A stretch of 43,626 nucleotides of DNA from a virus. The stretch is taken from positions 1-43,626 of the IMG/VR virus record IMGVR_UViG_3300037430_000005. One strand, 5' to 3'. The number at the start of each line of letters is the position of its first letter. Within the stretch, counting starts at the first letter, position 1. The notes below the pieces were generated by a model, which saw only the letters and a list, made by a program, of their open reading frames with translations, ran no database searches and was not told the origin of the DNA. Shown piece after piece: positions 651 to 41,596 of the stretch. The translations under genes and the position numbers were made by a program.

Positions 651-1088
651 TTACTCGGCCCCACGCTTCTGGGCCGCTGCGGCTTTCACCGCCGCCCGGC
701 TTCGGCGATGGTGGGCCAGCTCACACACGCGGCATACCCGATACCGCCCCCGTTGCTCGAGCGCGTGACCGCGAATGCATAACAGCGGATCGGAATCGCG
801 CCGGTTATGCCGTTGGGTGTAATGATCGGCCCAGCGGCAATTCTCCGGACTATAAGGCCCGTTCACATCAATCCGATCCAGCGTGAGGCCCGGCGGACAC
901 CGGCCCATGTCACTCAGAAACGCCAGATAATCGTGCCGCCATCGATCGCACACGATGATGCCTCTGGCCCCGTAGTGCTTGAACTTCTTATCCGTCTGGC
1001 AGTAGCAGCGGCTTTTCGTGCCAATCCACGCCCGATATTCGCGAGTCCCGGGACGGCCTTTCCCTTGCGGCGCTTCGCCATGTGTCAT
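651..1088 (-). CDS. Homing-endonuclease-associated DNA-binding protein (AP2/HNH-like motif), paralog of 19834..20505
   Basis: Motifs [51 protein letters not shown], plus a C-terminal Cys cluster CIRGH..CRVC. ATG 1088 overlaps the terL TGA as ATGA. An alternative ATG lies at 1097. Confidence 0.5.
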
Positions 1089-2410
1089 GACAGGCATACA
1101 AGGCCCACGCTCACAATCAGAAACAGCATTTCCGCCCACGCCTGCCCGCCCCGGCCGGGCGGTTGCCACTGCTTGATCCCCTTCTCGGTCGGCGTCTTAT
1201 GTCGGACCGCCAGATACCGAAAGGCATCCGCCCCATGACTCGCCGAATCGTGCACCGGGGTCGCCTTGAACTCCCGGAGCCGCTGGTTGTAATCCCGCCG
1301 GTAGTGCTGCAGGGCTTCTAACCCGGGCGCGGTTTTCGTCGCATCGAACCAGCACCGGGGAAACAGCATCCGGGCCGCATGAATCCCTTCTTCGATGGGC
1401 AGGTTCGGGCAGATGCGGAACTTGATCCCCAGACTCGCCGCCGTTTCAATCCGCGAGCGCCCACTACCGAGTTCCCGGACTTCGATATCATGCGGCGCCC
1501 AATGCTGGCCGTAGGTGTAGCGTTTCGTGGTCAGGACTTGCGCGTAGTGCGCGAGCCCTTCCCCTTGGGCTTCGTAGTAATCGATGATCCGAATTTCGCC
1601 GCCTCGGAGGGATTGACTAAACCATATCGCCGTAGAATCTCCCACACCAAGATCCCAGTCGGTATCGACCGGAAGTACAGGGTCGTACGGCACATTGGAC
1701 ACACGCCCACCAGTTCGCGCGGCCTCAAGCTCTGCACTGTAGATCGCCCCTTTGACGGCCGCGTCGAACGAGCATTCAAACTCTTGCGCGTACTCATCGG
1801 CGGTCATCACTTTCCGGGCTTCCGCCAGCTCCAGCGGCGTCAGGATGCCCGTCTCCGACGCTTTGTAGACCGCGCTGAACCAACTCGGCTCGCTCTGGGC
1901 ATACTTGTGGAGCTCGTAAAACTGGTTCTTCCCATTGGGCGTCCCCAGGAACAAGGCCCACCCCGCCCGATCGGAGAGCGCCGGCCGGAGCACGGTCGAG
2001 AAGATGTCCGAGGCGTGCAAGCCGTATTCATCGGGAATGACCCCGTCCAGATACAACCCGCGCAAGCTGTCCGGGTCATCGCCCCCATACACCCGCACCT
2101 GGCCCCCATTGGGGTAATCGATCCGCAACTCCGACTCGTTGAACTTCACCCCGGGAATCGGCCGCGCGTAGTGCTTGCAGTAATCCCAGACGGTCGCCTT
2201 GCCTTGCCGATACGTCGGGCCGATGTAGGCGAACCGGGGCCGTTCCTTCGGGCACATCAAGGCCCCTTGCTGCAAGAGGTTCACGGCCAGGACGCTCTTG
2301 CCCCACCGCCGATGACACACCAACACGCCAAAGCGATGCGCCCGCATGGCCTTGGCGACGACGCGCTGTAAGGGCCGGGGTTGATACGGAATCTGGACTT
2401 CAGTCAGCAT
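1085..2410 (-). CDS. terL: Terminase large subunit
   Basis: 441 aa. Walker A-like CHRRWGKS and Walker B-like [10 protein letters not shown]. Nuclease motifs [13 protein letters not shown] and [13 protein letters not shown]. Lies upstream of the portal. Confidence 0.85.
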
Positions 2411-4545: not shown

Positions 4546-4741
4546 ACGGAGGCACGGGACGTGCGGCCCGTCGTGCATCCTCTTCGCGCCAGTCCAACAT
4601 CGTCGTCACCATCGCCTTGACCGCCTGCGGCACATACCCCGCTGCGAGATCGGCCGCTTGCTGTTCGTTGACAAGTAAATAAAACTCGGTTTCGTGCTCC
4701 TGGTTCCGTTGGGCGAGCTCGGCGCGGAGGGCGTCCGTCAT
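4517..4741 (-). CDS. Hypothetical protein, 74 aa
   Basis: ATG 4741 overlaps the stop of 4738..5115 as ATGA. Translation MTDALRAELAQRNQEHETEFYLLVNEQQAADLAAGYVPQAVKAMV... Confidence 0.55.
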   Translation of the reverse strand: MTDALRAELAQRNQEHETEFYLLVNEQQAADLAAGYVPQAVKAMVTTMLDWREEDARRAARPVPPSKRAGGRGK

Positions 4742-5115
4742 GTTTCCTTGATCACGATCCCGTATTGCGCCTCGACGTGTTTCTTCTTCCACCGATAGAG
4801 GGGGGTTTTGAAGCCTTTCACGTCCTCGACCACATACGGCGTCGTGCGCCTGTCGGAGTACTTGAAATCCCCCCGATACTCCCCGATCCGTCGCGCGGCC
4901 GGCGTCCGAAACGCCCCCGCCAGATAGCCCGTCGTGGACTCCACCAGTAAGGGGAACCGCGGTTGCAGTTGAAGATCCCAAATCTTCCCCGCCTTCTCCA
5001 GCAGCTTCAATTCCTGATACCGCCGCGCTTCCTTCGCGGAATGGAACGTAATCCCGTCCACCGTCGTGGGCACGGCGCCATACTTGGACCGCTTGCGCGA
5101 TGGCCCGACCCTCAT
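4738..5115 (-). CDS. DUF1064-like putative endonuclease or resolvase
   Basis: KYGAVPTTVDGITFHSAKEARRYQELKLLEKAGKIWDLQLQPRF ... YRGDFKY ... VVEDVKGFKT follows the DUF1064 pattern. Confidence 0.55.
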   Translation of the reverse strand: MRVGPSRKRSKYGAVPTTVDGITFHSAKEARRYQELKLLEKAGKIWDLQLQPRFPLLVESTTGYLAGAFRTPAARRIGEYRGDFKYSDRRTTPYVVEDVKGFKTPLYRWKKKHVEAQYGIVIKET

Positions 5116-5300
5116 TCCGTATACCCCTTGAGATCCGCCTGCGCCTTGACCGCCCGCTGCGCCTCATAAAACGTCATGCGCTGCAACGCGTACGATCCAC
5201 ACGGGGTACACGGCCCATACGCGGCCTGATCATCCCGTTGGACCCGATTGCCGCGCCAGCCGCAAAGCTTACAGATCACGGCGTAACGAGGTTTCCTCAC
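5112..5300 (-). CDS. Small zinc-ribbon protein
   Basis: 62 aa with a GTG start. CKLCGW...CTPCG. ATGA coupling with the downstream gene. Confidence 0.5.
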   Translation of the reverse strand: MRKPRYAVICKLCGWRGNRVQRDDQAAYGPCTPCGSYALQRMTFYEAQRAVKAQADLKGYTE

Positions 5301-5320
5301 GAACGATCACGACGATCATG

Positions 5321-5383
5321 CGCGAAGGGGACATGCAGAGCGTCCACCGTGCCGCTTACCGCGTCCCCCATCTCACAGGTCAT
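5321..5383 (+). repeat. Structured repeat R4 (CGCGAAGG-N26-CTTACCGCG)
   Basis: Box1 at 5321..5328, box2 at 5355..5363. The tail CCCATCTCACAGG ends at the stop of 5380..5823. Confidence 0.85.
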
Positions 5384-5823
5384 CGGCCAAACCGCGTCGG
5401 CTTCTTGCGTGACGTGCCCGCTTCCTGGCTGAAATCATCTGCACTCTTGGGTTTCAACTTGAACCGTTCGCCGGCCGCACAGGTGCACGGCGTCCCGTAC
5501 TCATGTTGATAGTTAGAGAGCGGGGCCGTCACACACAGCCGGCGATACTTACCCGGCCGCTCGTGCCAGGTGTCCGTCCGGCTCGAGACACCGTTGCAGC
5601 GATCCCCCCGCCGGCAGAGCTTCGTGATCAACCCGGTGTCCTGGCACTGCGAGCAGAGGTATTTCCATTCGCGCACCTGGGGCCAGGCGGCGCGCAAGGT
5701 GCGCTCGAGCGTGGCGTTGAGCTCGGCTGGCGAGGCGCCTTCCGCCCGCGCCAGATCGCGCAGCCGGAGCGCTTCCTTCAGCGTCGCCGCGAGCCCTTCC
5801 GCGGTCACGAGGGGCGGCGTCAT
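5380..5823 (-). CDS. Cys-rich hypothetical protein
   Basis: 147 aa. CSQCQDTG...C..C...CTC. ATGA overlap with the upstream gene. Confidence 0.55.
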   Translation of the reverse strand: MTPPLVTAEGLAATLKEALRLRDLARAEGASPAELNATLERTLRAAWPQVREWKYLCSQCQDTGLITKLCRRGDRCNGVSSRTDTWHERPGKYRRLCVTAPLSNYQHEYGTPCTCAAGERFKLKPKSADDFSQEAGTSRKKPTRFGR

Positions 5824-6572
5824 GCGGGCACCGGATGCCGGGTTTCCCAGGCCGAGAGCCGATCCGACAACCAGCTGAACTTGGCGCGGAACACTTCAAT
5901 GCCCCGGTCGCTGGCGACGATAAACTCGTCGTCTGTTTTGTCCGACAGGAGAATTTGGGCGTATTTTTTAAGGCGATCGAGGTCCGTCGCGCCGAGCATT
6001 TCCTTCACCATCGCCCCGTGTTTCGCCCAACTGACGAGGTAGTCCGCGCCTGAGCGTCGGGCTTTGTATTCGCTCTGAAACCAGACGAGAAATTCACGGA
6101 CGCGGGGGTCCGCCGGCTTTTTCGGCGGCTCAACAACCGAAGGTTGTTTCTGTACTTTGGGATTGGGATTGGGAGTCGTGTTACCAACACCGTTACCAAC
6201 GCCGGTGTACGCCGCCTGTAACGGTGTTACAGCGCCCGTACGGAGCCGTCGCACCCGTTCAGTTGTTTCGGCCCGTTTCTTGAGGATTTTGGCCTTCGAG
6301 GCTTGATATTTCAGATAGTCATGGACGAGAAAGCCGTCCACGCCCCTGCGTGTGGTCGCCGACCAGAGGCGTAAGTCACACAATTTTGTGGAAAAAACTT
6401 CAGGATGGTCCGCCGGCACGAGCCGCGCCACTTGACTCACCGGGATGAACCCGTTCGTGAGCAGCCGATTGCAGTAGCAGAGGCCGGCGACGTAGAGCCA
6501 CGCGCCCAGCGGCCCCGCCGAGACGATCTTCGGATGGTCGGGAAAATGATCATCGATTCGCACCCACGGCAT
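5820..6572 (-). CDS. Putative replication-associated DNA-binding protein (replisome-organiser-like N-terminus)
   Basis: 250 aa. N-terminus WVRIDDHFPDHPKIVSAGPLGAWLYVAGLCYCNRLLTNGFIP. Located in the early operon. The function is inferred weakly. Confidence 0.3.
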   Translation of the reverse strand: MPWVRIDDHFPDHPKIVSAGPLGAWLYVAGLCYCNRLLTNGFIPVSQVARLVPADHPEVFSTKLCDLRLWSATTRRGVDGFLVHDYLKYQASKAKILKKRAETTERVRRLRTGAVTPLQAAYTGVGNGVGNTTPNPNPKVQKQPSVVEPPKKPADPRVREFLVWFQSEYKARRSGADYLVSWAKHGAMVKEMLGATDLDRLKKYAQILLSDKTDDEFIVASDRGIEVFRAKFSWLSDRLSAWETRHPVPA

Positions 6573-6826
6573 TACTTCGGTGCCACCTTTCGCGCATCGC
6601 CCGCTGTGGACTTGATTGTTGGCTATCTGACAGAACGCCGATCGTTACGTGCGTTACACTCCCCCGGGATGGCCCAGATCGTGATCTTCCCCGCCGTCGA
6701 ACCCGTCACCTGTGGATCCTGGGCGGGCGTCCCGGTCCATGTCTGGACACCGGCATCCCTCCCTGGATCGCCCTGCGTCTGTGGACGATCCGTGCTGCCG
6801 ACGTACGACGACGACGAATACTTTCC

Positions 6827-6893
6827 CGCGAAGGGTCGAGATCAGGTAATTCCTTCCTGCCACTTACCGCGCCGCCCATCTCATGATTCATAG
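6827..6893 (+). repeat. Structured repeat R5 (CGCGAAGG-N28-CTTACCGCG)
   Basis: Box1 at 6827..6834, box2 at 6863..6871. The tail CCCATCTCATGATTCAT covers the stop codon of 6881..7249. Confidence 0.85.
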
Positions 6894-7249
6894 AGCAGGG
6901 ACCGCACAGCGGCATCCTTTGCTTCGAGCAACTTCCGCAGCGCCACGGTCCGCTCGGGGTTGCGCGGGTAAGTGGCTTCCAGATGGACCGCGAGATCACA
7001 AAACGGCCGACTCCCGGTCTGTAACTGCGCCGGCAGATGCGCGTACCGAAAGAACTGCATCAAGGGCTCCTGAACGGCTTTCCCGGCCTGCTGTGTCCGC
7101 TCTACCGCCTCGACCTTTTCTTTCATTGCCTTGATCCGGATTTCGGCAGCAGTCGGATGCATCCGTTCTAATTGGTCGAGCACCTCACGCCGCGTGTCGC
7201 CTTCCGCTTCGCCCAACACGTTGCCGTCCCGGTCAAACGCTTGTCCCAT
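6881..7249 (-). CDS. Hypothetical phage protein
   Basis: ATG 7249 is preceded by AAAGGAG. 122 aa, ...FFRYAHLPAQLQ...ALRKLLEAKDAAVRSLL. Confidence 0.6.
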   Translation of the reverse strand: MGQAFDRDGNVLGEAEGDTRREVLDQLERMHPTAAEIRIKAMKEKVEAVERTQQAGKAVQEPLMQFFRYAHLPAQLQTGSRPFCDLAVHLEATYPRNPERTVALRKLLEAKDAAVRSLLYES

Positions 7250-7366
7250 GTGCGCGCTCCTTTGAAGGTGGCCCGACAAAAATCGCGGGCGGCTGCGGAA
7301 TCTCGGCATTGATCGGTCGCCACAAATGCAAGGGAATTATATACTTGAGTGCGAAGCATGATTGAA

Positions 7367-7807
7367 TCACGATTCTGTCTTGCAGTCGGCCGTCTCCCTG
7401 TCGTGTTCGTGCTTGCAGACAGGGCAGATGACTCCCGATGTGAAGTACTCGCGCAGCCGGTCCCAACAGCCCTCGCAAAACGGGCCGACGAAATCAGCGT
7501 AGGCCGGGTGTGGCTTCGCCGACTCGCCGCAATTGGTGCAGATGGGAGGACCAGCACGCCAAGGCACGCCATCGGCAGAATGAATCTGATGGTCGCGGTG
7601 ATATTCACAGTCCTTGCACCAGATGTCGCGGTCGTCTCCTGGCTCATGGGGCGTGCGCGAATTGAACGGGTGCGGCACCAGTTCTTCGTCCGGACATTCG
7701 TGGTCAAGATCGAAGACGAACCCAGAGTGGCAGTTGCAGCAATGAACATCCACCGCCGTGCCGTGCTCGCAGACGTGATCGCCGATGTCGTTGACCGTGA
7801 CTTTCAT
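7367..7807 (-). CDS. Cys/His-rich (multi-zinc-site-like) protein, cargo of the IS element
   Basis: ATG 7807 with AAGGAG upstream. Motifs HVCEH..HCCNCH..HEC..WCKDCEYH..CTNC..CEGC..CPVCKHEH. Confidence 0.6.
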   Translation of the reverse strand: MKVTVNDIGDHVCEHGTAVDVHCCNCHSGFVFDLDHECPDEELVPHPFNSRTPHEPGDDRDIWCKDCEYHRDHQIHSADGVPWRAGPPICTNCGESAKPHPAYADFVGPFCEGCWDRLREYFTSGVICPVCKHEHDRETADCKTES

Positions 7808-7808
7808 G

Positions 7809-7940
7809 TCACTTCTCCTTCGCGATCTTCGTGGCCCGGCGCTTCCGCCGTCGGGCGGGTTTACTCTTTGCCTTCGGGCGGTAGGCCAGCACCACGTCCA
7901 CAATCGCGTCCAGTTGTTTTGGAACCTTCGTCTTCGTCAT
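7809..7940 (-). CDS. Small basic protein (43 aa), cargo of the IS element
   Basis: Hand translation MTKTKVPKQLDAIVDVVLAYRPKAKSKPARRRKRRATKIAKEK. ATG 7940 overlaps the upstream TGA as ATGA. Confidence 0.4.
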   Translation of the reverse strand: MTKTKVPKQLDAIVDVVLAYRPKAKSKPARRRKRRATKIAKEK

Positions 7941-8332
7941 GGCCGGTTCTCATCGCCGTCCATCGCGTCAGTTCCTGCGAACGGTGGGTAGGGCTCGACG
8001 CGCCCGCTCTCCACCTTAGCGATGGCGGCTTCAGCTTTGGCGTATGGACAGTTGTCCCAGTGCGTCTTAGCCGGATTTCGGAGCACGCCGGAATCACACA
8101 TCGGGCAACCCCATCGCTCAGCGAAGATTCCCCGCAGGGCCGCGAGCAGGTCCGGCGCGGCGGCGATCAATCGGGCGTTAGCAGCGTTCTCCGCACGCGA
8201 CAGACCCGATCCAATATCCGGCGTGCAAGGCGCGGTGATTGCGAAGTGGCTGACCTTCGCGATGGCCATCCCATCGCCTTCGTTGATTTCCCACGGTCCA
8301 GGTGTATGCGTCGCGGTCCAAGTTGTGTCCAT
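7937..8332 (-). CDS. Hypothetical protein (GPWE...ANARLIAAAPDLL motif), cargo of the IS element
   Basis: 131 aa. The SD site TAGGAG overlaps the transposase stop, so the gene is co-transcribed with tnp. Confidence 0.6.
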   Translation of the reverse strand: MDTTWTATHTPGPWEINEGDGMAIAKVSHFAITAPCTPDIGSGLSRAENAANARLIAAAPDLLAALRGIFAERWGCPMCDSGVLRNPAKTHWDNCPYAKAEAAIAKVESGRVEPYPPFAGTDAMDGDENRP

Positions 8333-8341
8333 CGCAATCTC

Positions 8342-9265
8342 CTACTGAATCAGTGCCTTGTAAGTGAGTCGTTTGTCGGCCCTCCCGTCCACGAACGAGT
8401 CGAGCCGGTCGAGCGTGTGAATCTTGACGTTGCCTTCGTTCAGGCGGAACGTGAACTCGTCCACGTAGCGCGGGAGATGCTTCGGGCTGGCGTGATGGTA
8501 GACACCCATCAGCCCGCGCTTCAGGACCGCCCAAACACTCTCAATGCTGTTCGTGTGCGCCGCGCCGCGTGCGTATTCCCCGAGCGAGTGGTTGATGGTG
8601 TCGTGCCGAAAGAACAGCCCGTCGAGCCCGTCGAAGATGGCGCTGTCGTCGGTGTAGAGTTGCGAGCCCGCTTCGACGTTCCGGTGAATCTCGCCGTGAA
8701 CCTCATCGAACGTCATCTGACCGGACGGCCGCGCCTGCATCCGGCCGCCGCGTTCCTTCATGCCGAGCACGGCCGTTTTGCCGACTGGCCCGCGTCCCGC
8801 GTGCAGCTTTTTGTTCTCGTGCTTGTTCCCCTCCAGGCCGCCGACGAAGGTTTCGTCAATCTCGATGATGCCGCGCAACTTCCGCAGGTTCCGGCCGCCG
8901 CACGCTTCGCGGAGTCGGTGCAACTGGAACCATGCCGTCTTCTGGGTCACGCCGATCTGCTTGGCGAGCTGGAGACTGGAGATCCCCTTGCGGGCCGTGA
9001 CGAGCAGATACATGGCGTAGAGCCACTTGTGCAGCGGGATGTGCGACCGCTCAAGGATCGTGCCGGTTCGCACGGTGAAGACTTCCCGGCAGGGGTTGCA
9101 GCGGTAGTAGCCGACGCGCTTCGTGCTCACGACGCCAGCCTGACCCTTACAGACCGGGCAAACGGGGCCAACCGGCCAGAGTCGAGACTCGAAATACACG
9201 CGGGCCGACTCCTGATTGGGGAACCGCTCGAACAGTTGGAAGGTACTGATAGTGCTTTTCGCCAT
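8342..9265 (-). CDS. tnp: IS1595-family DDE transposase
   Basis: 307 aa. N-terminal zinc ribbon CPVCKG...YRCNPC. DDE-region motifs IIEIDETFVGG, LYTDDSAIF and HTNSIESVWAVLKRG. Confidence 0.85.
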   Translation of the reverse strand: MAKSTISTFQLFERFPNQESARVYFESRLWPVGPVCPVCKGQAGVVSTKRVGYYRCNPCREVFTVRTGTILERSHIPLHKWLYAMYLLVTARKGISSLQLAKQIGVTQKTAWFQLHRLREACGGRNLRKLRGIIEIDETFVGGLEGNKHENKKLHAGRGPVGKTAVLGMKERGGRMQARPSGQMTFDEVHGEIHRNVEAGSQLYTDDSAIFDGLDGLFFRHDTINHSLGEYARGAAHTNSIESVWAVLKRGLMGVYHHASPKHLPRYVDEFTFRLNEGNVKIHTLDRLDSFVDGRADKRLTYKALIQ

Positions 9266-9371
9266 GCCCTAATTGTAGCAAAAACGCCGTGCGCACTCAA
9301 GTATATAATTCCCCAATAGAGACACATCGCCAGCGCGGTACCGCAGTGGTGACAGGCTTGGACGTCGTGGC

Positions 9372-9677
9372 TCACGCGAAGTCCTTATCCCAGGCAATCG
9401 CCACATCGCCAGCGATCGGATTCGTCGTGCCGGGCTTGCATACGGAGTGATACAGCTTGGTGGCGGCCGGGTTGATCGGTTTGCCGTCGATCAAGCCGAC
9501 GTCATCCACGAGCATGATGCGCCCGTCGCGCAGATTCACCGTGTCGATGGTGTCCGCGCCGATCATGCGCTGGCACCAATTGAGCAAGATAGAACGGCCG
9601 ACATGGTGTTCTTCGTCCTGGCCGTTCGTGCGGAGAATTGTCACGACGGCGAGTTTCTTCATCGTTTCAGTCTTCAT
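9372..9677 (-). CDS. DUF3846-like protein
   Basis: ...RMIGADTIDTVNLRDGRIMLVDDVGLIDGKPINPAATKLY...IAGDVAI. The start is ATG 9677 or 9662. Confidence 0.5.
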   Translation of the reverse strand: MKTETMKKLAVVTILRTNGQDEEHHVGRSILLNWCQRMIGADTIDTVNLRDGRIMLVDDVGLIDGKPINPAATKLYHSVCKPGTTNPIAGDVAIAWDKDFA

Positions 9678-9909
9678 CTGCGTAGCCACAATCCCAGTCG
9701 TGGTAATCCGTGAACAGCGCGCACCCACAGTCGGGACAATGCGGATCGTCCACGCATTCAGGACACGTCTGATCACACGCGCGGCACCACGAGAGCTGAT
9801 GATCGCCGCAGAACTCGTGGACGGCCGCGTGGCCCGTGAAGTCACGGCACCACGGATCGCGGTAGCCGTCGTCGTCCTGCGGGTAGGGTTCTTCGTCTTC
9901 GGTGCTCAT
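9667..9909 (-). CDS. Acidic Cys-rich small protein
   Basis: 80 aa. WCRD..H..H.FC..H..WCRACDQTCPEC..HCPDCGC. Its leader and start codon lie in repeat R6. Confidence 0.6.
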   Translation of the reverse strand: MSTEDEEPYPQDDDGYRDPWCRDFTGHAAVHEFCGDHQLSWCRACDQTCPECVDDPHCPDCGCALFTDYHDWDCGYADED

Positions 9910-9970
9910 GCGGTCACCATCGTCAACGCGGTAAGTGGACGCTGGGAATTACCTGTCGGTTACCTTCGCG
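9907..9970 (-). repeat. Structured repeat R6 (CGCGAAGG-N27-CTTACCGCG)
   Basis: Box1 at 9963..9970 overlaps the last codons and TAA of 9960..10163. Box2 is at 9927..9935. The tail ACGATGGTGACCGCATGAGC supplies the start of 9667..9909. Confidence 0.85.
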
Positions 9971-10163
9971 CATAAAATTCTTGATCTTCGTCGTGCCCGC
10001 GTCGGGCGATCACCCGCAGTCGATCCAATCGATCACTGGCTTCCTGATCCCACGGCCGCGATCGAAAGCGGACATCTTCCTCCCGTCGTTGCAGGAAGAC
10101 GCGGACGTAGATGCCCCCCATCGCCACCACAAAGACGCCGACGACGAGCAGGACATACCTCAT
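9960..10163 (-). CDS. Small membrane protein
   Basis: 67 aa with the N-terminal hydrophobic helix MRYVLLVVGVFVVAMGGIYV. Confidence 0.5.
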   Translation of the reverse strand: MRYVLLVVGVFVVAMGGIYVRVFLQRREEDVRFRSRPWDQEASDRLDRLRVIARRGHDEDQEFYARR

Positions 10164-10510
10164 AGCTTGAACGCCAGCGCCTCGCGCGGCCCCTTGACGA
10201 CGATCTCGTCATCGGCATTCCCCGTGATCGTGATCCGTCCCGCATGCTCGAGCCGATGATGCGCGACGCAGAGGTAACAGAGATTCGAGGGCGCCCATAG
10301 GAGCCGCTTGGATTTCGAGCGATAGATGATGTGGTGCAAGTGAATCCCATCCTCCCGGCAGCCGGGGACACTGCAGCGCCGGCCGTCACGGAGTCGCACG
10401 GCTTTGCGTGCCGCCGCTTCCAGGGCCTTGCCGGTGAGCCGTTTCGTCCGCTTGAGCTCCACACCGAGCTTGCCCTTGGGAAACGCGAGCTGGGAGGTAT
10501 CCATGCCCAT
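10160..10510 (-). CDS. HNH endonuclease
   Basis: CSVPGC..GIHLHHIIYRS...NLCYLCVAHHRLEH. ATG 10510 shares one base with the upstream TGA (TGATG). Confidence 0.7.
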   Translation of the reverse strand: MGMDTSQLAFPKGKLGVELKRTKRLTGKALEAAARKAVRLRDGRRCSVPGCREDGIHLHHIIYRSKSKRLLWAPSNLCYLCVAHHRLEHAGRITITGNADDEIVVKGPREALAFKL

Positions 10511-12354
10511 CACGCCGCCCCCGCGAACGACGTCGGATCGCCAAATTGCAACACCGTCACCAGCGTCTGTCGGCCGGGTACGTTCGCCAGCGGCGTCAGG
10601 TGCAGATGCCATTTCTTCTCGCCCGCGGCCACGGCGGTGCCGGGCCACGCGACGGCCTGATCCACCACGGTCGCCACGAGGTCATCGCGCTGCCAGGTGA
10701 GACGGGCCATGCCTGACGGGATCGGCCACTCGGCGACGTTGCCGGTGATCGTCGGGACCACGGGACAATGCCAACGCCATTGCCGTAAGGGATTGCTTTT
10801 GATGCGCGTCTGCATCGCGGCACTGTAGCGGGTGAAATTCGCCAAGAGCTGCGGATCGTCCAGATCGGACGTGTCGGTCACGGTGATCCTGTCCACGGCG
10901 TCCGCGTGCCGCCACTCGATCGTGCGGGTGTACTCCTTGAGGAACGGCGGGATTTTGTAATAGTTGGCCGCGGGAGACAGTACATGGCCGCGCGTCGTGC
11001 CGGCGACGAAGAACACGCCAGGCGCGGTGATGAGGCGGTCCGCGATCCGCGATTCGACGGATGAGCCGAAGCCGGCCAGGAGCATCACGTTGGCGCCTTC
11101 GCCCGTCGTCGTGACCCCGCCGTACGTGATCGGATGCGTCAGCGCCCAGCTGCCTTGGCGGTACAGTTGCACGTCCCCGAAATACGTCACGCCATGATCG
11201 ACGCCGCCATTCGGGTGCGTCGGCGGGAAGTGCGTCATCAGGTGCGAGGCGTCCGCCTGCCACGAGCTGCGGGCACTGACGATCCCTTGCCCGGTCGCGT
11301 TGAAGATCAGCGGGAGCGCGTCGCGGGTGCGCGTCGGGCCATACGGATCAAACAGGAGGAAGGATCGCGCGAGCGGCGGCGTGGCGGCCGTGCCGTACTG
11401 CGCCGTCATGTCCACGACGAACTGGCGCGCATCGGACGAGTCGAAGCACATCGCGGACGCCACCCAATAGGGCGGGCGCACCTTATGCGGTTCCTGCTCG
11501 TCCCCCCATTGAAAGCTCTGCTTCAGATCCGGCGTGATTAGGTGCGTGTAGCGTTGGGCGGCGTGCGCCTGCCACGCCACGACCTCGGGGAAGTGCTCGA
11601 TCCCCACGGCGGCGGCCCCGAGCAGCAGCAGTCGCACGGTCCCCAGGTTGTATTCGGAGCCTTCGATCCACTCCCCGCCTGCCGCCATCTCGACGTAATC
11701 GCGCACGCAGTTGCGGAGCGTGAGCCGGTCCCGGCCCGTGCTGTCATACCCGCCCACGCACGGACGGATGAACAACGCTTGCGCGGGGCCATCATCCGGG
11801 AACGCCTTCGCATAGCAGGCGAGCCCCATGTAGACGCCTGTCACCTGATCAGAATCGACTGTTCGCAGCGGCATCGCCGCGGGTAGCGAGGGGTTCGTCA
11901 ACGCGGAGGTCCACATCGCATCGAGTTGCGCCAGGAATTGCGCGCGTTGCGCCTCGCTCAGCCCCGGCCAGAGCCAGTCGAGGATCACAACCCGTTCCAT
12001 CGCGTATTCCCGCACGTTGTCCTGCTGAAAGGTCGTGGCCGTGAGGAAGCCTTGCAGTTTCGCCCACGCCTTCGCGACGAATGCCACATCCCCTGTCGCC
12101 TGATACGCGATCGTCGCCCACAGGCCCGTGTCCGCGTAGACGGTGCCACTCAGCGCAGCCGTGCGGATCAGGGTCCACCACGGATGGGTCTCGGCGACCA
12201 TGCGGTTGAAGGTCGCTTGCCGGGTCGGCGTCCAGAGCAAGCGGGGGGCGCGGCCCGTGGGACTCGTCACCGGCGGCGGGATCACCACAGGCGGGAGTTG
12301 ATGCGCTTCAATCAACAGGCGCAAGGATTCGATGAACTCAGGATCAGTGCTCAT
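10510..12354 (-). CDS. Polysaccharide-lyase-like protein (heparinase II/III or alginate-lyase type architecture)
   Basis: 614 aa. The N-terminal half is helical and rich in W and A. The central motif is HFPPTHPNGGVDHGVTYFGDVQLYRQGSWALTHPITYG. The C-terminal half looks beta-rich. Assignment is by motif resemblance only. Confidence 0.4.
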   Translation of the reverse strand: MSTDPEFIESLRLLIEAHQLPPVVIPPPVTSPTGRAPRLLWTPTRQATFNRMVAETHPWWTLIRTAALSGTVYADTGLWATIAYQATGDVAFVAKAWAKLQGFLTATTFQQDNVREYAMERVVILDWLWPGLSEAQRAQFLAQLDAMWTSALTNPSLPAAMPLRTVDSDQVTGVYMGLACYAKAFPDDGPAQALFIRPCVGGYDSTGRDRLTLRNCVRDYVEMAAGGEWIEGSEYNLGTVRLLLLGAAAVGIEHFPEVVAWQAHAAQRYTHLITPDLKQSFQWGDEQEPHKVRPPYWVASAMCFDSSDARQFVVDMTAQYGTAATPPLARSFLLFDPYGPTRTRDALPLIFNATGQGIVSARSSWQADASHLMTHFPPTHPNGGVDHGVTYFGDVQLYRQGSWALTHPITYGGVTTTGEGANVMLLAGFGSSVESRIADRLITAPGVFFVAGTTRGHVLSPAANYYKIPPFLKEYTRTIEWRHADAVDRITVTDTSDLDDPQLLANFTRYSAAMQTRIKSNPLRQWRWHCPVVPTITGNVAEWPIPSGMARLTWQRDDLVATVVDQAVAWPGTAVAAGEKKWHLHLTPLANVPGRQTLVTVLQFGDPTSFAGAA

Positions 12355-15724: not shown

Positions 15725-15928
15725 ATGGCCCCGTCGTCGTTGGCGTCGATCGTTGCGCCCGTCGTCCACCTGATTCATCCCCACCAGACCGCGGTGCTCC
15801 AGCTCCTGATGCGGCATGCGATTGCGTTGCTTGCCCTCGAGGGGGACGCCTTCGTGCAGACGGCCGATGATCTGCTGGTGTCCCGCCTGCGCGATCTCGC
15901 GGCCGTCGCGGACAAGCTCCCCCACTAA
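15725..15928 (+). CDS. Hypothetical protein (67 aa)
   Basis: High third-position GC in this frame. Convergent with int, overlapping it by 4 nt. The overlapping minus ORF looks worse. Confidence 0.4.
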   Translation: MAPSSLASIVAPVVHLIHPHQTAVLQLLMRHAIALLALEGDAFVQTADDLLVSRLRDLAAVADKLPH

Positions 15929-16926
15929 CGGGCGAAGCGGCCGGTGAGCAGATCGCTGACGCGTCGTTGCCGGCTCGCCTGTAAGGGCCCGTAGTACGCG
16001 CGGGTCGTCTCGATCTGGGTATGGCCCAGGAGCCCTTGCACGTCGCCCAGATCGGCGCCGGCCTCGAGCGCGGCAAAGGCAATCGCATGCCGCGCGTTAT
16101 ACGGCCGAATGCCTTTCGGCCAGCCGCACGACCGTAAGAGCCGCGCTTGCTTCGTCGTATCAAACCACCCCCAGGCGTGGGCCACGATGAACAACCGCCA
16201 CGCGGCAAGTTGATCGCGATTGAGATAGACGGGATGCGCGGGTTCGTTCTTGGCGCTGCGCACGATCCAGATCTTCTTTCGGAGCTGCACGTCTTCCGGC
16301 GTGGCGGCCATCAACTGCCCGGCTCGCTGGCCTGTCGTGACGAGGACGCGATACCGCGCATACGCCTGGGCGTTGCCGGTGCGCTTCAACCGCTCCCCCA
16401 CCCGGCGAATCGTCTCGAGCGGCACGTCCACGGGCTGCGCCTTCGGCGTTTTGGGTTTCTTCGCGTCGGCGATGGGATGGCGGGCATGCTTGCCTTGGAG
16501 CGTTTGATAGAGCTCGCGCAGCACCCGGCAGCGATGCAGGATCGTTTTGTCGCTGACGCCATCGATCTGCCACGCTGCAATCGCCAGGTTCACATGCTCC
16601 GTCTTGATCCGGCTGAGCGCCCACGACCCCAAGCGCGGGAGCCACGCGCGCAGATGGGACCGATCCGCAGGGCCACTCACCCGGCCAGCGATCTGTTTGA
16701 CGTACGTGGTCACGGCCTCCGTCAATGTCCCGCGCAGCATTGGCACCGCGGCGTCGGCCGCCCGATCCAACAGCTCAGCCGTGGTCCGCGCTCGCCACGC
16801 CTGCATCAACAGCACGTCCATATCGGGCGGGAAGCGTTTCGTCCGGACCTGGCCCTTCGCCTTCACCCGGACATCAAAGCCATACCGATCCCGATGAATC
16901 CCGGTCGCCACCAACGTCCGGTCCAT
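15925..16926 (-). CDS. int: Tyrosine integrase
   Basis: ATG 16926 with GAGAGGA upstream. C-terminal catalytic region RPYNARHAIAFAALEAGADLGDVQGLLGHTQIETTRAYYG. Confidence 0.85.
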   Translation of the reverse strand: MDRTLVATGIHRDRYGFDVRVKAKGQVRTKRFPPDMDVLLMQAWRARTTAELLDRAADAAVPMLRGTLTEAVTTYVKQIAGRVSGPADRSHLRAWLPRLGSWALSRIKTEHVNLAIAAWQIDGVSDKTILHRCRVLRELYQTLQGKHARHPIADAKKPKTPKAQPVDVPLETIRRVGERLKRTGNAQAYARYRVLVTTGQRAGQLMAATPEDVQLRKKIWIVRSAKNEPAHPVYLNRDQLAAWRLFIVAHAWGWFDTTKQARLLRSCGWPKGIRPYNARHAIAFAALEAGADLGDVQGLLGHTQIETTRAYYGPLQASRQRRVSDLLTGRFAR

Positions 16927-17094
16927 GTGTCCTCTCTTTTTTGGGTCGTGGCCGAGCCCAACGACGGGCCTCCACCCCACCCCCTCCATTCCGCTGTCCG
17001 AAAACGGGTGGAGTTTACTAGAGATTTCAAGAGGTGGCAAATGAACGCACTTCGGGCGGGAATCGGCGGAATCGGTGAATTTGCTGAGGAAAAG

Positions 17095-19833: not shown

Positions 19834-20505
19834 ATGGGTCGTCCAGCCTTGGCTCCACCCGCGATCGGGTCTCGCTTCGGCAATCTCACTGTTACCGGCT
19901 ATCCAGATAGGGTCCGTGGTCGAGTCTTTTGTACGGTTCGATGCGATTGCGGAACGGTCGTGAGTTTGGAAGCGAGCAGGCTGCGGCGTGGCAATGACCG
20001 ATCCTGCGGCTGTTGGAAACGGAACCAGCTTGCGAACGCCAGTCGCACGCACGGCGCGGCGGGCGTCGGCAAGCAAACGCCTGAATACAAAGCGTGGTGC
20101 GCGATGAAGCGCCGCTGCTACAACCCGGCCGAAGACAGCTATCCGTACTACGGCGGGAAAGGGATCACGGTCTGCGATGAATGGCTGCACTCCTTTCCTC
20201 AGTTCCTGGCAGATGTTGGCCCTAAGCCCACCCCGAAACATTCGATTGACCGAATCAACAACGATCTGCCGTACCGTCCTGACAACGTGCGCTGGGCCAC
20301 ATCCTTGGAGCAATGCCAGAACCGCTCGGTCAGCCGTTATGTGAACTACAAGGGCGAACGCCTGCCGTTGGCTGAACACGCGCGGCGGGCGGGGTTGCCG
20401 CCGAAGGTGGTAGACAGACGACTGCGCCGCGGGTGGCCGCTACACGTTGCACTGACGAGGTCGCTTGATCGGAAGAAGCATCAGTCTCCACCCAACGCGG
20501 CATAG
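19834..20505 (+). CDS. Homing-endonuclease-associated DNA-binding protein, paralog of 651..1088
   Basis: FGNLTVTGY...CDCG...SCGC ... TPEYKAWCAMKRRCYNP...YYGGKGITVCDEW..FLADVGPKP..HSIDRINNDLPYRPDNVRWAT..EQ. It is the only plus-strand gene inside this minus-strand block. Confidence 0.55.
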   Translation: MGRPALAPPAIGSRFGNLTVTGYPDRVRGRVFCTVRCDCGTVVSLEASRLRRGNDRSCGCWKRNQLANASRTHGAAGVGKQTPEYKAWCAMKRRCYNPAEDSYPYYGGKGITVCDEWLHSFPQFLADVGPKPTPKHSIDRINNDLPYRPDNVRWATSLEQCQNRSVSRYVNYKGERLPLAEHARRAGLPPKVVDRRLRRGWPLHVALTRSLDRKKHQSPPNAA

Positions 20506-21560
20506 AACGCCTCCGCGCACGCACGCTCTCCGTCGGTAAACAGTCGCGCGTCATTCCACGCGTCATGATGAAAGGTGCCGCCAGCGGCACAGCACGCCGA
20601 CTGGCCCATCAACCGCGCCACGCCGACATCGAAGCCGTATTGCGCTGGCTTGATCGTTTCTTCGGGGATGTATGGGCACGGCGTCGGGTAGGTGTCTTGG
20701 AACACATACGCCGAGTAGTTGCTGCTGATCTTCGCCAACCCACCGGAGCGCCGGCCGTGATACGTCGCGTAGTCCCACAGCGGTTTGACCGGCTGCGCAT
20801 CGCTCAGGCCGGAGCCGTGCGAGCTCAACACCCCGTCAGGTTTGCGAAACGCCTGCGCGTTGATGGCTTGGGTCGCATGCTTGTCTTCGTTGACGAGTTC
20901 CACAAGCATCCACGGAAAGACGCGGATCGTCTCGATGGTCTGCCGATAGAAGTCCTGTTGTTCAATCGGGTCCGGCATCATCTTTTTGGTATCGGCGAAG
21001 ATGGTCCATTCGCCATAGAGCCCGGCATCCCCAACTTGCGTACAGGTCGCGATCACGGCCTCCCAATAGCCGGGGCTGTGCGTGTTGAACTCCCAACCCG
21101 TGTTCGGACTCTTCATTGCTAAGATCCGTACGAGATTCGCGCCTGCGGCTTTCCGGTCCTCGAGCAGCGGCGTGATATCAACGCCTCTCAGCACACACTC
21201 CGCTAACCGAAAATCAGTCGAACCTTTGATGAGAAACCGGGAGTCCCCCTGCATGAAATGATCGCCTTCGATCCGCAACCCCGTGCCAGTTGACGCCTGG
21301 GGTTCGAGGTAGCAGTCCGTCCAGTCGATGTCCCCAAACGGCGGCGGCCCCGGGTCGAGATTGATACTCGCGCTGTAGCTCGCATAGCCGTCCTTTCCGA
21401 TCGCGAGTTGGACTTGATGCCAGTCGCTCGAAATCCCCTCGAGCCGGACCCGGCCATTGGCTTCGGTCGTACCGCAGACGTCGTTCACGCACACCGAGGC
21501 CCCTTCGAGCGGGGCGTTGCTGTTGAGGTCGCGGACGGTGACGGAAAAGGCGCGGGTCAT
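20481..21560 (-). CDS. Glycoside-hydrolase-like protein (GH5-type TIM-barrel motifs) with an N-terminal CarboxypepD_reg-like domain
   Basis: ATG 21560. VTVRDLNSNAPLEGASVCVND..TTEANGRVRLEGI, then ANLVRILA and LVELVNEDK (NE acid/base-like). The listed start 21596 lies inside the inserted element's inverted repeat. Confidence 0.45.
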   Translation of the reverse strand: MTRAFSVTVRDLNSNAPLEGASVCVNDVCGTTEANGRVRLEGISSDWHQVQLAIGKDGYASYSASINLDPGPPPFGDIDWTDCYLEPQASTGTGLRIEGDHFMQGDSRFLIKGSTDFRLAECVLRGVDITPLLEDRKAAGANLVRILAMKSPNTGWEFNTHSPGYWEAVIATCTQVGDAGLYGEWTIFADTKKMMPDPIEQQDFYRQTIETIRVFPWMLVELVNEDKHATQAINAQAFRKPDGVLSSHGSGLSDAQPVKPLWDYATYHGRRSGGLAKISSNYSAYVFQDTYPTPCPYIPEETIKPAQYGFDVGVARLMGQSACCAAGGTFHHDAWNDARLFTDGERACAEAFYAALGGD

Positions 21561-21566
21561 TCTTTG

Positions 21567-22030
21567 GGGACTTATATCGTTGACTCCCGTGTTCACTTTC
21601 GGCTCACGCGCGAACGGGCCAACTGAAAGTCCCAGGCTGATCGCCCACCGTGCGCGAAGTCGCCCAGAACACGTCGTTGCTGTCGAGGAACACCTGACCG
21701 TTCACGGCGCTCTCGGCAGACGGTCCCCACACGCGCACGATGAGCATCGGGAATGTATCCCCCTCAGCGACGTCGTTGCCGATGTGCGCCTGAGCGCCAG
21801 CAGGCCACGCGGACACGTCTTCACCGCCTTGCGGGTTCACGAGTTTGCTTTTCATGCGATCCGCGATGGCCTTCCCCGTCGTGCGACGGCGCATGATCTG
21901 CTCGACGTCTTGCGCGCTCAGCCGGTAGTGAACGATGCGACCAATCGACGGAATCTGTTCGCTCATCTGTGTCTCCTTGAAGCCAACGTGTTCTGTTCCG
22001 ATTCATGAGGGAGTCAACGATATAAGTCCC
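21567..22030 (-). mobile_element. 464-bp non-autonomous (MITE-like) element with perfect 22-bp inverted repeats, an 8-bp target duplication and one cargo gene
   Basis: IR at 21567..21588, GGGACTTATATCGTTGACTCCC. Its exact reverse complement is at 22009..22030. Direct repeat ATTCTTTG at 21559..21566 and 22031..22038. Confidence 0.85.
21604..21966 (-). CDS. Hypothetical protein (120 aa), cargo of the 464-bp element
   Basis: AAGGAG 6 nt upstream of ATG 21966. MSEQIPSIGRIVHYRLSAQDVEQI... Confidence 0.65.
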   Translation of the reverse strand: MSEQIPSIGRIVHYRLSAQDVEQIMRRRTTGKAIADRMKSKLVNPQGGEDVSAWPAGAQAHIGNDVAEGDTFPMLIVRVWGPSAESAVNGQVFLDSNDVFWATSRTVGDQPGTFSWPVRA

Positions 22031-22205
22031 ATTCTTTGGGCACCGTGTGCGGGGCCGGGAGCACGGCCGCGATCTCCGTGACGGCGTCGATCAGCGCGAG
22101 CAACGTCTGCTCCACCTCAGCCACGGCAGCGTGGATACCGGGGGCCGTGCGGATCGTGTGCGCGTGCTTTGCTGCCCGATCCAACGCCTCTGCGAGTTCA
22201 TTCAT
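22014..22205 (-). CDS. Hypothetical protein whose last 5 codons (WDLYR*) are read from the inserted element
   Basis: 63 aa. The original end is reconstructed as ...HTVPKE*. Confidence 0.55.
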   Translation of the reverse strand: MNELAEALDRAAKHAHTIRTAPGIHAAVAEVEQTLLALIDAVTEIAAVLPAPHTVPKEWDLYR

Positions 22206-38403: not shown

Positions 38404-39636
38404 TCAACTCCAAGCGCGAAGGGCAAAATACGGCAACATGGCCGCAACTCCCCCAATACTGTCAATTCTACTCGGAAGTTGATCGGTCTGAATGTTGTAC
38501 TGTTCGACGAACCGCAGCGAGAGGTTGAAATCGCCCCCGCCATTCACCCGTTTCGCAATCGCGCCCGGCAGACTCTTGGGGAGATCGACCATGACGAAGG
38601 CAAAGGCCGCGGGATTGAAGAGCAGCGATTGGCGAGAGGTCTGCGCGGCCATGGTGGCTGCGACAGTCCCGGTCGCCCCGAGCCACTGGATCGCGGCGCC
38701 GTTGCCGGGCGCGGCCGTGACCGTCTGGAGCGGCCCGGAGGTGATGATCGGCGGCGAGATCGCAAAGGTGCCCGTGGTCGTCCCGGCCAGGGGCGCCGTC
38801 AACACGAACTGCTGCAGATCCCCGGTGTCCACGTAGCTCACCGGGTTCACCGCATTGACCCCGGCGATGGTGAAGACGTCCCCCTGCACCATCGCATACG
38901 TGCCCATGCCGGAGAGGGCCAGCGTCGAGCCGGTTTGTCCACCAGAGGACGTGATGGGCGTGGCGGTCGTGAACGTGCCGGTCGTGAACGTCGGCATGTT
39001 CGGATCCCAGTACCAGCTATCCACCCCCAACGCGGGCCCGGAGAACTGGCCACTGCGGAAGTACTTGCTGATCTGGGCTTGCGGGTTGAACAGCGCGAAA
39101 TTCGCACTCAGCAACCGGCTCTGGCTCTTGGGGTCGAGCACCGCGACGAACTCTTCAGGAACACCCACGTTGCGCATCTTGGCCACGCCGTCGGTGTAAA
39201 TCTGATCGTCCGCAATCGGCGTCCCGGGTGACCCGATGCTGTAGTACACCTGCTTGAAGACTTCCGCCCCGGCCACGACGTCCCATTTGTTCGCCTGGGC
39301 CCGGCCCGCGGGTTTGGTGTAGCGGTTCTGGACTTCTTCCACGACCAGCGCATCGTCCGCGCTCGACCACCCCATCCCAATCTGGAACTGATGGTTGATG
39401 GTCATCGGGACGGTCTGGTTCAGGATGGGCTGCTCGACCAGCGCCTGGCCTTCGCTGACCACCCAGCGCTGTTGAATGCGGACTTGGACCGTGTACCCGA
39501 TCTGGGCGCCTTGGGGTTTATTCTCCCAGGTGTTGTCCCAGGTGCGATCGAACTGGCCGATCAACTTCAAGTTATTTTTGAAGTTCACGGCCACGTCTTT
39601 GGTGACCCATGAAGGCGTAATAAAAGTGTTCGCCAC
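38404..39636 (-). CDS. Major capsid protein (P22 coat-like, HK97 fold)
   Basis: 410 aa. MANTFITPSWVTKDVAVNFKNNLKLIGQFDR... and GDVFTIAGVNAVNPVS resemble P22 gp5-family coats. Follows the scaffold-like gene. Confidence 0.75.
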   Translation of the reverse strand: MANTFITPSWVTKDVAVNFKNNLKLIGQFDRTWDNTWENKPQGAQIGYTVQVRIQQRWVVSEGQALVEQPILNQTVPMTINHQFQIGMGWSSADDALVVEEVQNRYTKPAGRAQANKWDVVAGAEVFKQVYYSIGSPGTPIADDQIYTDGVAKMRNVGVPEEFVAVLDPKSQSRLLSANFALFNPQAQISKYFRSGQFSGPALGVDSWYWDPNMPTFTTGTFTTATPITSSGGQTGSTLALSGMGTYAMVQGDVFTIAGVNAVNPVSYVDTGDLQQFVLTAPLAGTTTGTFAISPPIITSGPLQTVTAAPGNGAAIQWLGATGTVAATMAAQTSRQSLLFNPAAFAFVMVDLPKSLPGAIAKRVNGGGDFNLSLRFVEQYNIQTDQLPSRIDSIGGVAAMLPYFALRAWS

Positions 39637-41207: not shown

Positions 41208-41596
41208 CGTCCCGTCAACAGCCAATTGAGCCGCCCCCAGAAGCCCCGCCGAGTGAACGCGCGGAACTGATCCGCGATCTCGTTCGTGACCACCATCGTC
41301 GTGTCAAAGGCGTTCACATGCACCCGTTCCACGCGGGCGCGTAAATCCTTCTCGATGTGGTCCACCTTGTCGTACATCGCCGCGAAGCTCGCTTCGACCT
41401 GTTCAAAGCGTTCGACCACGGCGCCCTGCGTCTCCGCGATGACATGGGCTAAGCCGTCCGTCGTACGCTTATGGGCAGCCTGTTGCGTCGGGTTCATCGG
41501 ACGTGTCCTTGATTGCAACGTCTGCGCATCAAGCCGCTCCCCCGTGCTGACGCGCACGTAGGTGTCCGTCGCCAGGTCATACACCAGATCAGTCAT
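41204..41596 (-). CDS. Hypothetical head-module protein
   Basis: 130 aa. ATGA overlap with the portal stop. Confidence 0.5.
   Translation of the reverse strand: MTDLVYDLATDTYVRVSTGERLDAQTLQSRTRPMNPTQQAAHKRTTDGLAHVIAETQGAVVERFEQVEASFAAMYDKVDHIEKDLRARVERVHVNAFDTTMVVTNEIADQFRAFTRRGFWGRLNWLLTGR

Follow-up and report, generated by a model that had tools for sequence, protein, structure and literature searches.

A phage-borne IS1595-family transposon with a probable two-gene core and exchangeable passenger genes

The DNA analysed here is a single viral sequence of 43,626 nt (IMG/VR record IMGVR_UViG_3300037430_000005), and this whole stretch is referred to below as the window. It is a temperate phage genome, the term temperate being based on its tyrosine-integrase gene. 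At positions 7332-9313 the window contains an element of the IS1595 insertion sequence (IS) family in which three small open reading frames (ORFs) follow the transposase gene. The locus raises the question of whether these ORFs travel with the element or are phage genes that happen to lie next to a shorter IS. We consider 7332-9313 to be, with good probability, an intact IS1595 transposon of an ISNwi1-like clade that consists of a two-gene core and two variable slots and is mobile from one terminal repeat to the other.

A first-pass annotation of the window had described a 1,982-bp element bounded by perfect 22-bp inverted repeats (IRs) at 7332 and 9313, and both ends were found exactly there (Table 1). 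The IR arms are 22 nt long, 100% complementary and begin with GGG. With up to three mismatches allowed, the 22-mer occurred at just these two places in the window and in none of 100 shuffled sequences. The four genes listed earlier (transposase, 131-aa protein, 43-aa basic protein and 146-aa Cys/His-rich protein) were all present, and they form a chain in which the signals for stop and start overlap or abut. Only 9 nt separate the transposase stop from the next start codon, and the AGGAG Shine-Dalgarno sequence of the 131-aa ORF overlaps the transposase TAG stop. The 131-aa and 43-aa ORFs are joined by an ATGA overlap, and the 146-aa ORF starts 1 nt after the stop of the 43-aa ORF, with AAGGAG inside the last codons of the latter. 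Two negative observations of the first pass were also reproduced: no IR-like sequence adjoins the transposase stop, and the 8-mers flanking the element, AAATGCAA and CAATAGAG, are identical at 4 of 8 positions and do not form a duplication. A promoter-like site, recognised by its match to the consensus, has its -35 element (TTGAGT) within the transposase-proximal IR (IRL) and an extended -10 element shortly before the ATG of the transposase gene. Members of the clade conserve a TTGAC/TTGAG motif at IR positions 14-18.

Relatives of the element were fetched from 80 loci on viral contigs (157 IMG/VR matches) and 80 loci on genome contigs, and GGGAATTATATAC-type ends delimited 125 unique elements among them. 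Three of the closest relatives, with transposase identities of 82-89%, carry different genes after the transposase: two small ORFs in L001 (1,474 bp), a PAPS-reductase gene in L002 (2,000 bp) and a PAPS-reductase-like gene in L003 (1,945 bp, the same as L004). Their IRs are identical or near-identical to those of the window element, and in each case a perfect 8-bp target-site duplication (TSD) surrounds the whole IR-to-IR unit (TTCCAGAG, TTGTATTT and CAAGGTTA, respectively). A fourth relative, L006, is also flanked by a perfect 8-bp TSD. Perfect 8-bp TSDs with an A+T content of 83% were seen in 98 of the 125 delimited elements: the targets of these relatives are A/T-rich 8-mers, which are duplicated on insertion. 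Since perfect TSDs enclose whole units with differing passengers, the cargo moves with the element. The delimited elements measure 1,170-4,453 bp (median 1,846 bp), and 123 of the 125 exceed 1,350 bp and therefore carry genes beyond the core. The earlier proposal that the cargo lies inside the element is thus borne out by independent insertions of relatives, which duplicate the target around the entire unit.

The elements of the clade share one gene order: IRL, (slot 0), transposase, (slot A), 43-aa peptide, (slot B), distal IR (IRR), where the slots in brackets may be filled or empty. In most elements that lack a slot-A gene, the peptide starts at -1, +2 or +5 nt from the transposase stop. 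When slot B is empty, the peptide ORF enters IRR and ends at the TAA of the IR itself. A slot-B cargo ORF of at least 45 aa began between -19 and +5 nt from the peptide stop in 31 of 43 elements. Transcription would start from the promoter with its -35 element in the transposase-proximal IR, possibly with added read-through from co-oriented phage early genes. Ribosomes would then be handed on from gene to gene, in the window element by the stop/Shine-Dalgarno overlap behind the transposase, the ATGA and the 1-nt spacer in turn, and a slot-B gene would therefore need no translation signals of its own.

This layout changes the status of one of the three ORFs that had been called cargo. The 131-aa and 146-aa genes are indeed cargo; the 43-aa gene is a conserved core gene of the clade. 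Sixteen of its 43 residues are lysine or arginine. At the DNA level the peptide region is 77-85% conserved in L001, L002, L003, L006 and L007, unlike the adjacent ORFs, and all close relatives share the encoded peptide, whose motif is ..K.LDA[IV].D.VLAYRPKAKSKPARRRKRRA.KIAK... Of the 85 sequence sources searched first (84 loci and the window), 81 matched a hidden Markov model (HMM) of the peptide, as did 99 of the 125 delimited elements, with transposase identities reaching down to about 58%. Differences between the peptide genes numbered 1077, 791 and 3358 at codon positions 1, 2 and 3. In the peptide frame there were 2578 synonymous and 1337 non-synonymous differences, as against 369 and 3650 in one of the other frames and 145 and 3763 in the remaining one. 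The synonymous excess in a single frame indicates that the gene is protein-coding and under purifying selection, beyond what a conserved DNA site would give.

The peptide is also widespread. A profile search of 5.8 billion proteins returned more than 4,100 peptide clusters, consisting of 40-48-aa "hypothetical proteins" that lack a Pfam domain. One identical 43-aa peptide (P0122) was found ATGA-coupled behind an IS1595 transposase in all eight places that were read, each time with different flanks, many of them clearly phage (holin and lysozyme, integrase, VapE, Cro, Aca2). The AlphaFold2 model of the window peptide consists of a helix at residues 8-19, a loop YRPKAKSK and a basic helix at residues 27-42, with a predicted local distance difference test score (pLDDT) of 86. 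A PDB profile search gave no meaningful match, PADLOC gave none, and tblastn against phage records was without a match, although the low-complexity filter may have interfered there. In the literature, with ISfinder outside the search, no description of a conserved small second ORF was found. The small protein may be a DNA-binding accessory subunit or a regulator of transposition, and it may double as a coupling platform for downstream cargo.

The assignment of the element to the IS1595 family, made in the first pass from the letters of the sequence, was upheld by Pfam and NCBIfam. The transposase matched the full DDE_Tnp_IS1595 domain (PF12762; E-value 5.4e-39, profile positions 1-153 of 153), Zn_ribbon_IS1595 at residues 16-60 (PF12760; E-value 1.8e-9) and NF033547 transpos_IS1595 with 198 bits against a cut-off of 75. 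Of the traits that define the family, the element has this DDE domain, the zinc ribbon and terminal IRs, and the 8-bp TSD is found for the element type, in relatives with identical ends, and not for the window copy. An N-terminal zinc ribbon is present in all IS1595 subgroups except IS1016 (PMC8101967). Subgroups were compared by BLASTP against partial DDE-domain sequences of 21 ISfinder references from seven subgroups (PMC8101967, S2 File). Against these partial references ISNwi1 scored highest (85 bits, 35% identity), followed by ISSpo8 (58), ISPepr2 (57), ISSod11 (55) and ISAba36 (55). The ends GGGAATTAT and GGGACTTAT fit the end consensus of the ISNwi1 subgroup, which we take to be ggnnatTAT. 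With an identity of only 29-35% to ISNwi1, ISSpo8 and ISPepr2, the transposase probably represents a distinct clade near the ISNwi1 subgroup within the IS1595 family. Transposases at least 70% identical to it number in the thousands in metagenomes. In phage records, tblastn found relatives of only about 37% identity, in gut phage fragments, and no annotated relative was found there. Plasmid records contained relatives of at most 47% identity, named only "IS1595 family transposase" and without subgroup names.

Across the clade the cargo is highly diverse: 120 elements contained 221 cargo ORFs in 197 clusters, and most of the 115 ORFs of at least 70 aa are without annotation. The cargo that could be annotated is mostly involved in DNA modification (examples are L008, L007 and L002). 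It includes C5 (8) and N4/N6 (3) methyltransferases together with D12, N6 and Eco57I-type enzymes, and further a Vsr protein, a Mom-family protein, PAPS-reductase-like proteins (3 by Pfam, 5 by PHROG) and one QueC-like protein. C5 DNA methyltransferases, PAPS-reductase-like enzymes and small Cys-rich proteins are among the passengers of relatives with identical ends. Passengers are exchanged freely among relatives, the phage gene pool and DNA-modification genes being their main sources.

The two passengers of the window element fit this pattern. The 131-aa protein matched phrog_1273 and, by precomputed annotation, PF27050 Phage_P22_Y8K6; it belongs to a large family of phage proteins of about 110 aa, of which 3,087 representative clusters match. 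One relative occupies slot A of the distant element L054, and another lies outside any IS on the phage contig L007. A PDB sequence search with this protein was empty. The 146-aa protein is composed of three Cys/His modules (residues 1-42, 40-80 and 80-145), each 75-92% identical to parts of other small proteins in varying combinations. In L248, a phage contig with neither IS nor IR motif, modules 1 and 2 make up a separate gene that lies between those for the small and large terminase subunits. The 5' 235 bp of the 146-aa gene are about 90% identical to that gene; the homology extends from the Shine-Dalgarno sequence to the gene end and breaks exactly at the gene boundaries. Module 2 occurs in a further IS-free phage (L250), and module 3 is cargo of another IS (L249). 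Judged by these matches, the window passengers were drawn from a phage accessory-gene pool, with recombination breakpoints at gene boundaries. Structure prediction had been suggested earlier for the Cys/His-rich protein: an AlphaFold2 model was obtained (pLDDT 77, predicted template modelling score 0.41), and no significant fold match in the PDB came with it. A RING or E3-like identity was rejected, as the best RING-like Foldseek hit in the PDB had an insignificant E-value of 0.62. None of the five element proteins matched in PADLOC.

A pool of small, recombining Cys/His-rich modules of about 35-65 aa, mutually 75-92% identical, was observed both in phage genes and in IS cargo. Its sites are window 7367-7807, L248 6001-6249, L249 6001-6363, L250 6001-6567 and L005 1642-2037. 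A module CxGRYPVPQTxPPRDEPFDVTYRC is common to the L005 cargo, P0246 and P0254.

Could the element nevertheless be a plain transposase-only IS of 1.1 kb beside native phage genes, with an unrelated solo end at 7332? The missing TSD of the window copy would suit such an arrangement, as would the nature of the passengers: typical phage genes, co-oriented with the phage operon, phage-like in GC content and with close relatives of their modules in IS-free phages. Those IS-free relatives, however, show where the cargo came from and not that it lies outside the element. The first-pass annotation had named cargo genes at this same position in IS-free phages as evidence that would speak against its own view; modules or relatives do occur in IS-free settings (L248, L250, L007), none of them at this position or in a related phage. 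The short IS would need an end near the transposase stop, where no IR-like sequence exists and the next start codon is 9 nt away. IRR and about 30 internal nt are 94% identical to the corresponding end of L001, and in relatives that share these ends but not the passengers, perfect TSDs enclose the entire unit. Finally, the peptide gene of the clade lies between the 131-aa and 146-aa genes, which places both inside the element. The transposase-only account is largely refuted, and we regard it as very improbable. A different doubt concerns the 43-aa ORF, which could be a mere translated coupling spacer or be conserved as subterminal DNA bound by the transposase. It is very short, overlaps the transposase stop and holds the Shine-Dalgarno sequence of the next gene in its last codons, and where slot-B cargo is missing it runs into the IR and ends at its TAA. 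The prevalence of third-position substitutions and the synonymous excess confined to the peptide frame argue against both forms of this idea. The motif LD.I.D.VL.YRPK.K.K and the basic tail are kept across transposases 58-100% identical to that of the window, the peptide is retained where nothing downstream could be coupled (slot B of 5-29 nt), and AlphaFold2 predicts a confident helix-loop-helix. A spacer or DNA-site role in place of a protein is unlikely.

Several observations weigh against the transposon account that we favour. The peptide HMM misses 26 of the 125 elements, mostly more distant ones. For the subgroup placement, identities to the partial references are 29-35% and the margins small, and the promoter assignment is a consensus match only. 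The peptide and both passengers have no PADLOC or PDB homologues, and the peptide and the 146-aa protein have no Pfam homologue. The window copy has no TSD to mark its own insertion by transposition, and no IS-free relative of the phage, hence no pre-insertion site, was found. A TSD is the trace of an insertion and may vanish when the DNA is later rearranged. An uninterrupted junction in related phages, a comparison proposed in the first pass, was found through neither the DUF3846 neighbour nor the neighbour at 6881-7249: the former had no confirmed relative, and IMG/VR relatives of the latter shared no second gene with the window. As to why the duplication is missing, the simplest explanation would be a later event in which one flank was replaced, either by an adjacent deletion or by recombination between two copies. 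We lean slightly towards the view that the window copy is such a hybrid, with flanks from different original target sites, produced when two IS copies recombined homologously within one phage or during co-infection by two, or when the IS caused an adjacent deletion. The perfect IRs and intact genes of a copy that lacks a TSD are consistent with this, and some phage contigs do carry two copies (L050 and L051 on one contig). The flanking 8-mers have 5 and 6 A/T of 8 in a genome of about 62% GC, compared with 83% A+T in the targets of the clade. The 27 delimited relatives (of 125) without a perfect TSD comprise 17 of the 58 on viral contigs and 10 of the 67 on genome contigs, a higher share in the former. 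On the other side, the window contains no second copy, and no relative was found that displays the deleted or exchanged segment. A hybrid origin concerns the history of this copy and is compatible with the favoured account of the element. A 3-bp TSD formed by the CAA at both junctions was rejected, since such a match would arise by chance in roughly 1 case in 64 and TSDs of the clade measure 8 bp.

The surroundings of the insertion contain two short repeated strings. A 13-nt perfect direct repeat, CACATCGCCAGCG, is present at 9323-9335 and 9402-9414, 79 nt apart, with the first copy in the intergenic gap just outside the transposase-proximal IR and the second in the 3' end of the DUF3846 gene. 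The 23-nt string TTGATCGGTCGCCACAAATGCAA (7309-7331) abuts the IS on the other side and is identical in metagenome sequence that is otherwise unrelated (L251 3166-3188; L252 357-379). A 21-nt flank probe against metagenome contigs found one unrelated sequence. Given the size of the collection, the match of TTGATCGGTCGCCACAAATGCAA outside the window is probably due to chance.

Relatives of the element occur in 157 IMG/VR viral contigs. The flanks of viral copies encode primase, helicases, a RecE-like exonuclease, HNH nucleases, methyltransferases, integrase and terminase. Relatives on genome contigs, at 58-71% identity, are found in metagenome-assembled genomes (MAGs) of Acidobacteriota, Alphaproteobacteria, Nitrospirota, Planctomycetota, Verrucomicrobiota and others; the carriers include soil MAGs and a few cultured sphingomonads. 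The subclade of the window element (at least 81% identity) was seen only in metagenomic and viral contigs. Where the strand of the flanks was clear, viral copies were co-oriented with them in 12 cases and opposed in 3, and genome copies in 6 and 8, respectively, a weak hint of selection for co-orientation in phages.

One Nitrospirales chromosome, OZ253473.1, contains at least seven copies of a related element. Seven of them (L203-L209) are identical 1,692-bp copies with a 167-aa upstream passenger and without a match to the peptide HMM. Their TSDs are all different and A/T-rich; six are perfect and one agrees at 7 of 8 positions. This pattern indicates that the element has been active recently in this genome. 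A nested arrangement was observed in L050, at 4592-7523 of IMGVR_UViG_3300048824_000144: a perfect TSD, ATCATTTT, lies at the outer ends, and there is an internal IRR-like copy at 5334-5355. The order is IRL, 720 bp of cargo, the internal IRR-like copy, 650 bp, transposase, peptide and IRR, and the contig carries a second copy (L051). L050 may show an element in the course of acquiring upstream cargo by way of a cassette.

The window also carries a 464-bp element without a transposase at 21567-22030, bounded by perfect IRs and a perfect 8-bp TSD (Table 1). Its IR, GGGACTTATATCGTTGACTCCC, is identical to that of the 1,982-bp element at 16 of 22 positions, in agreement with the first pass, and to the L003-type IR at 19 of 22. 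A degenerate pattern describing the ends of both elements recovered only these four ends in the window and none in 100 shuffles. From its ends and content, the 464-bp element is assigned to the same end family and fits the definition of a mobile insertion cassette (MIC), of which IS231-MIC231 of Bacillus cereus is an example (De Palmenaer et al. 2004, as cited in PMC3129680). It resembles such cassettes in having IS-type IRs, no transposase, one passenger ORF, the TSD of its family (8 bp) and an autonomous relative in the same genome. It differs in being IS1595-like, not IS4/IS231-like, and in residing in a phage. The cassette could be a related element that is non-autonomous and depends on a transposase of this clade acting in trans; its IRs differ from those of the co-resident autonomous element at 6 of 22 positions, which makes trans-mobilisation by that particular copy uncertain. 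The 120-aa passenger had no match in Pfam or NCBIfam. Outside the window, the exact cassette IR was present in a single viral contig, where the cassette is imperfect and lacks a TSD, and the only other transposase-less cassettes in all fetched loci were the imperfect L247 and L180, both without TSDs, and the nested L050. The cassette is inserted 6 nt before the ATG codon (21560-21558, minus strand) of the gene at 20481-21560, which encodes 359 aa, and the TSD overlaps this start codon by 2 nt. A mechanically called ORF with a GTG start (20481-21596) runs into the cassette IR, indicating that the upstream signals of the 359-aa gene have been replaced by cassette sequence.

Apart from the hallmark genes in Table 1, the phage encodes an exonuclease and a head-closure protein. 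Its length of 43,626 bp, together with a terminal ORF (41593-43626) that runs off the end, suggests a near-complete, possibly permuted genome. Exact-protein look-ups found only this same phage, again with the IS, in the Logan assembly SRR12917227. Among 50,697 deposited phage genomes there was no close relative, and the "distant" blastn search of 5000-12000 against these records gave a sole match of 67 nt, to Myxococcus phage Mx4. The 80-aa ORF upstream of the DUF3846 gene, which had no match in Pfam or PHROG, is another small zinc-finger-like protein of the same early region.

Table 1. Positions of the transposon, the 464-bp cassette and neighbouring phage genes in the window (TSD, target-site duplication; IR, inverted repeat).
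Feature	Position	Strand	Basis or remark
Whole transposon, IR to IR	7332..9313	minus	1,982 bp, four translationally coupled genes
Distal terminal IR (IRR)	7332..7353		pairs with 9292-9313
Slot-B passenger, 146-aa Cys/His-rich mosaic	7367-7807	minus	14 Cys, 13 His
Conserved small basic protein, 43 aa, core gene of the clade	7809-7940	minus	HMM, coding pattern
Slot-A passenger, 131-aa phage-type protein	7937-8332	minus	phrog_1273, PF27050
IS1595-family transposase, 307 aa, N-terminal zinc ribbon and DDE domain	8342-9265	minus	Pfam, NCBIfam
Promoter-like site TTGAGT, 17-nt spacer, TG-TACAAT	9272..9300	minus	consensus scan only
Transposase-proximal terminal IR (IRL)	9292..9313		GGGAATTATATACTTGAGTGCG on minus strand; identical end in L001, L002
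Large terminase (TerL)	1085-2410		phage hallmark gene
Replication-initiator-like gene	5820-6572		beside IS region
DUF3846 gene	9372-9680		other side of IS region
80-aa acidic Cys-rich ORF	9667-9909	minus	immediately upstream of DUF3846 gene, outside IS
HNH-endonuclease-like ORF	10160-10648		weak Pfam matches below cut-off
Tyrosine integrase	15925-17040		phage hallmark gene
Transposase-less cassette, MIC-like, 464 bp	21567..22030	minus	perfect 22-nt IRs 21567-21588, 22009-22030
Single cassette passenger ORF, 120 aa	21604..21966	minus	phrog_19300 (E-value 5.4e-25), own AAGGAGA Shine-Dalgarno
8-bp TSD of cassette	21559..21566 (left), 22031-22038 (right)		ATTCTTTG, perfect
Major head protein	38404-39636		phage hallmark gene

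Passenger-carrying members of the IS1595 family, termed transporter IS (tIS), are known (Siguier, Gagnevin & Chandler 2009, as cited in PMC3129680 and PMC8101967), and according to the citing literature they are a subject of the paper that defined the family. The window element resembles them in its zinc-ribbon and DDE_Tnp_IS1595 transposase, its terminal IRs starting with GG, the 8-bp TSDs of its relatives and the presence inside the IRs of genes unrelated to transposition. The clade differs from tIS by its conserved second gene and by passengers in defined, translationally coupled slots, and the window copy differs by its location in a phage genome and its lack of a TSD. Members of the family have been described as having "a single transposase gene" (PMC8101967), and a conserved 43-aa second ORF plus two passengers depart from this usual layout. 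The conserved peptide, the coupled slot layout, the prominence of DNA-modification genes among the cargo and the frequent occurrence in phages appear to be undescribed.

It is possible, as a tentative reading, that the clade has become a specialised gene shuttle for phage genomes, a cassette platform similar to integrons but driven by a DDE transposase. The likeness to integron gene-cassette platforms is functional only: a conserved platform gene is followed by diverse, tightly packed and often promoter-less cargo ORFs expressed from upstream signals. The clade has no integrase and no attC or attI sites; a DDE transposase moves the whole unit, and the cargo breakpoints seen in the window element coincide with gene boundaries. 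If the clade were such a shuttle, its core would be a transposase and a small basic DNA-binding cofactor that give cargo slots both transcription and translational coupling. Orphan methyltransferases, other DNA-modification enzymes and small zinc-binding phage proteins, the last being candidates for anti-restriction or host takeover, would be shuffled between phages and across phyla.

ISs in phage genomes are thought to be rare and mostly harmful, and the presence of this clade in at least 157 viral contigs, and of one identical copy in eight different contexts, many of them clearly phage, contrasts with that supposed rarity. Extra genes are almost always carried by the clade, and DNA-modification (anti-restriction) functions stand out among them. 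Should the copy in the window have lost a flank by deletion, the deletion would also offset the 2-kb gain in a capsid-limited genome. For a family described as single-gene, the 43-aa protein is a candidate new transposition factor. Gene callers mark this protein as "hypothetical", and the passengers are taken for normal phage genes; recognising the boundaries of the element alters the interpretation of mosaicism in such phages. If these elements move between phages and hosts, they would provide a rapid route for accessory and counter-defence genes that is independent of homologous recombination between phages.

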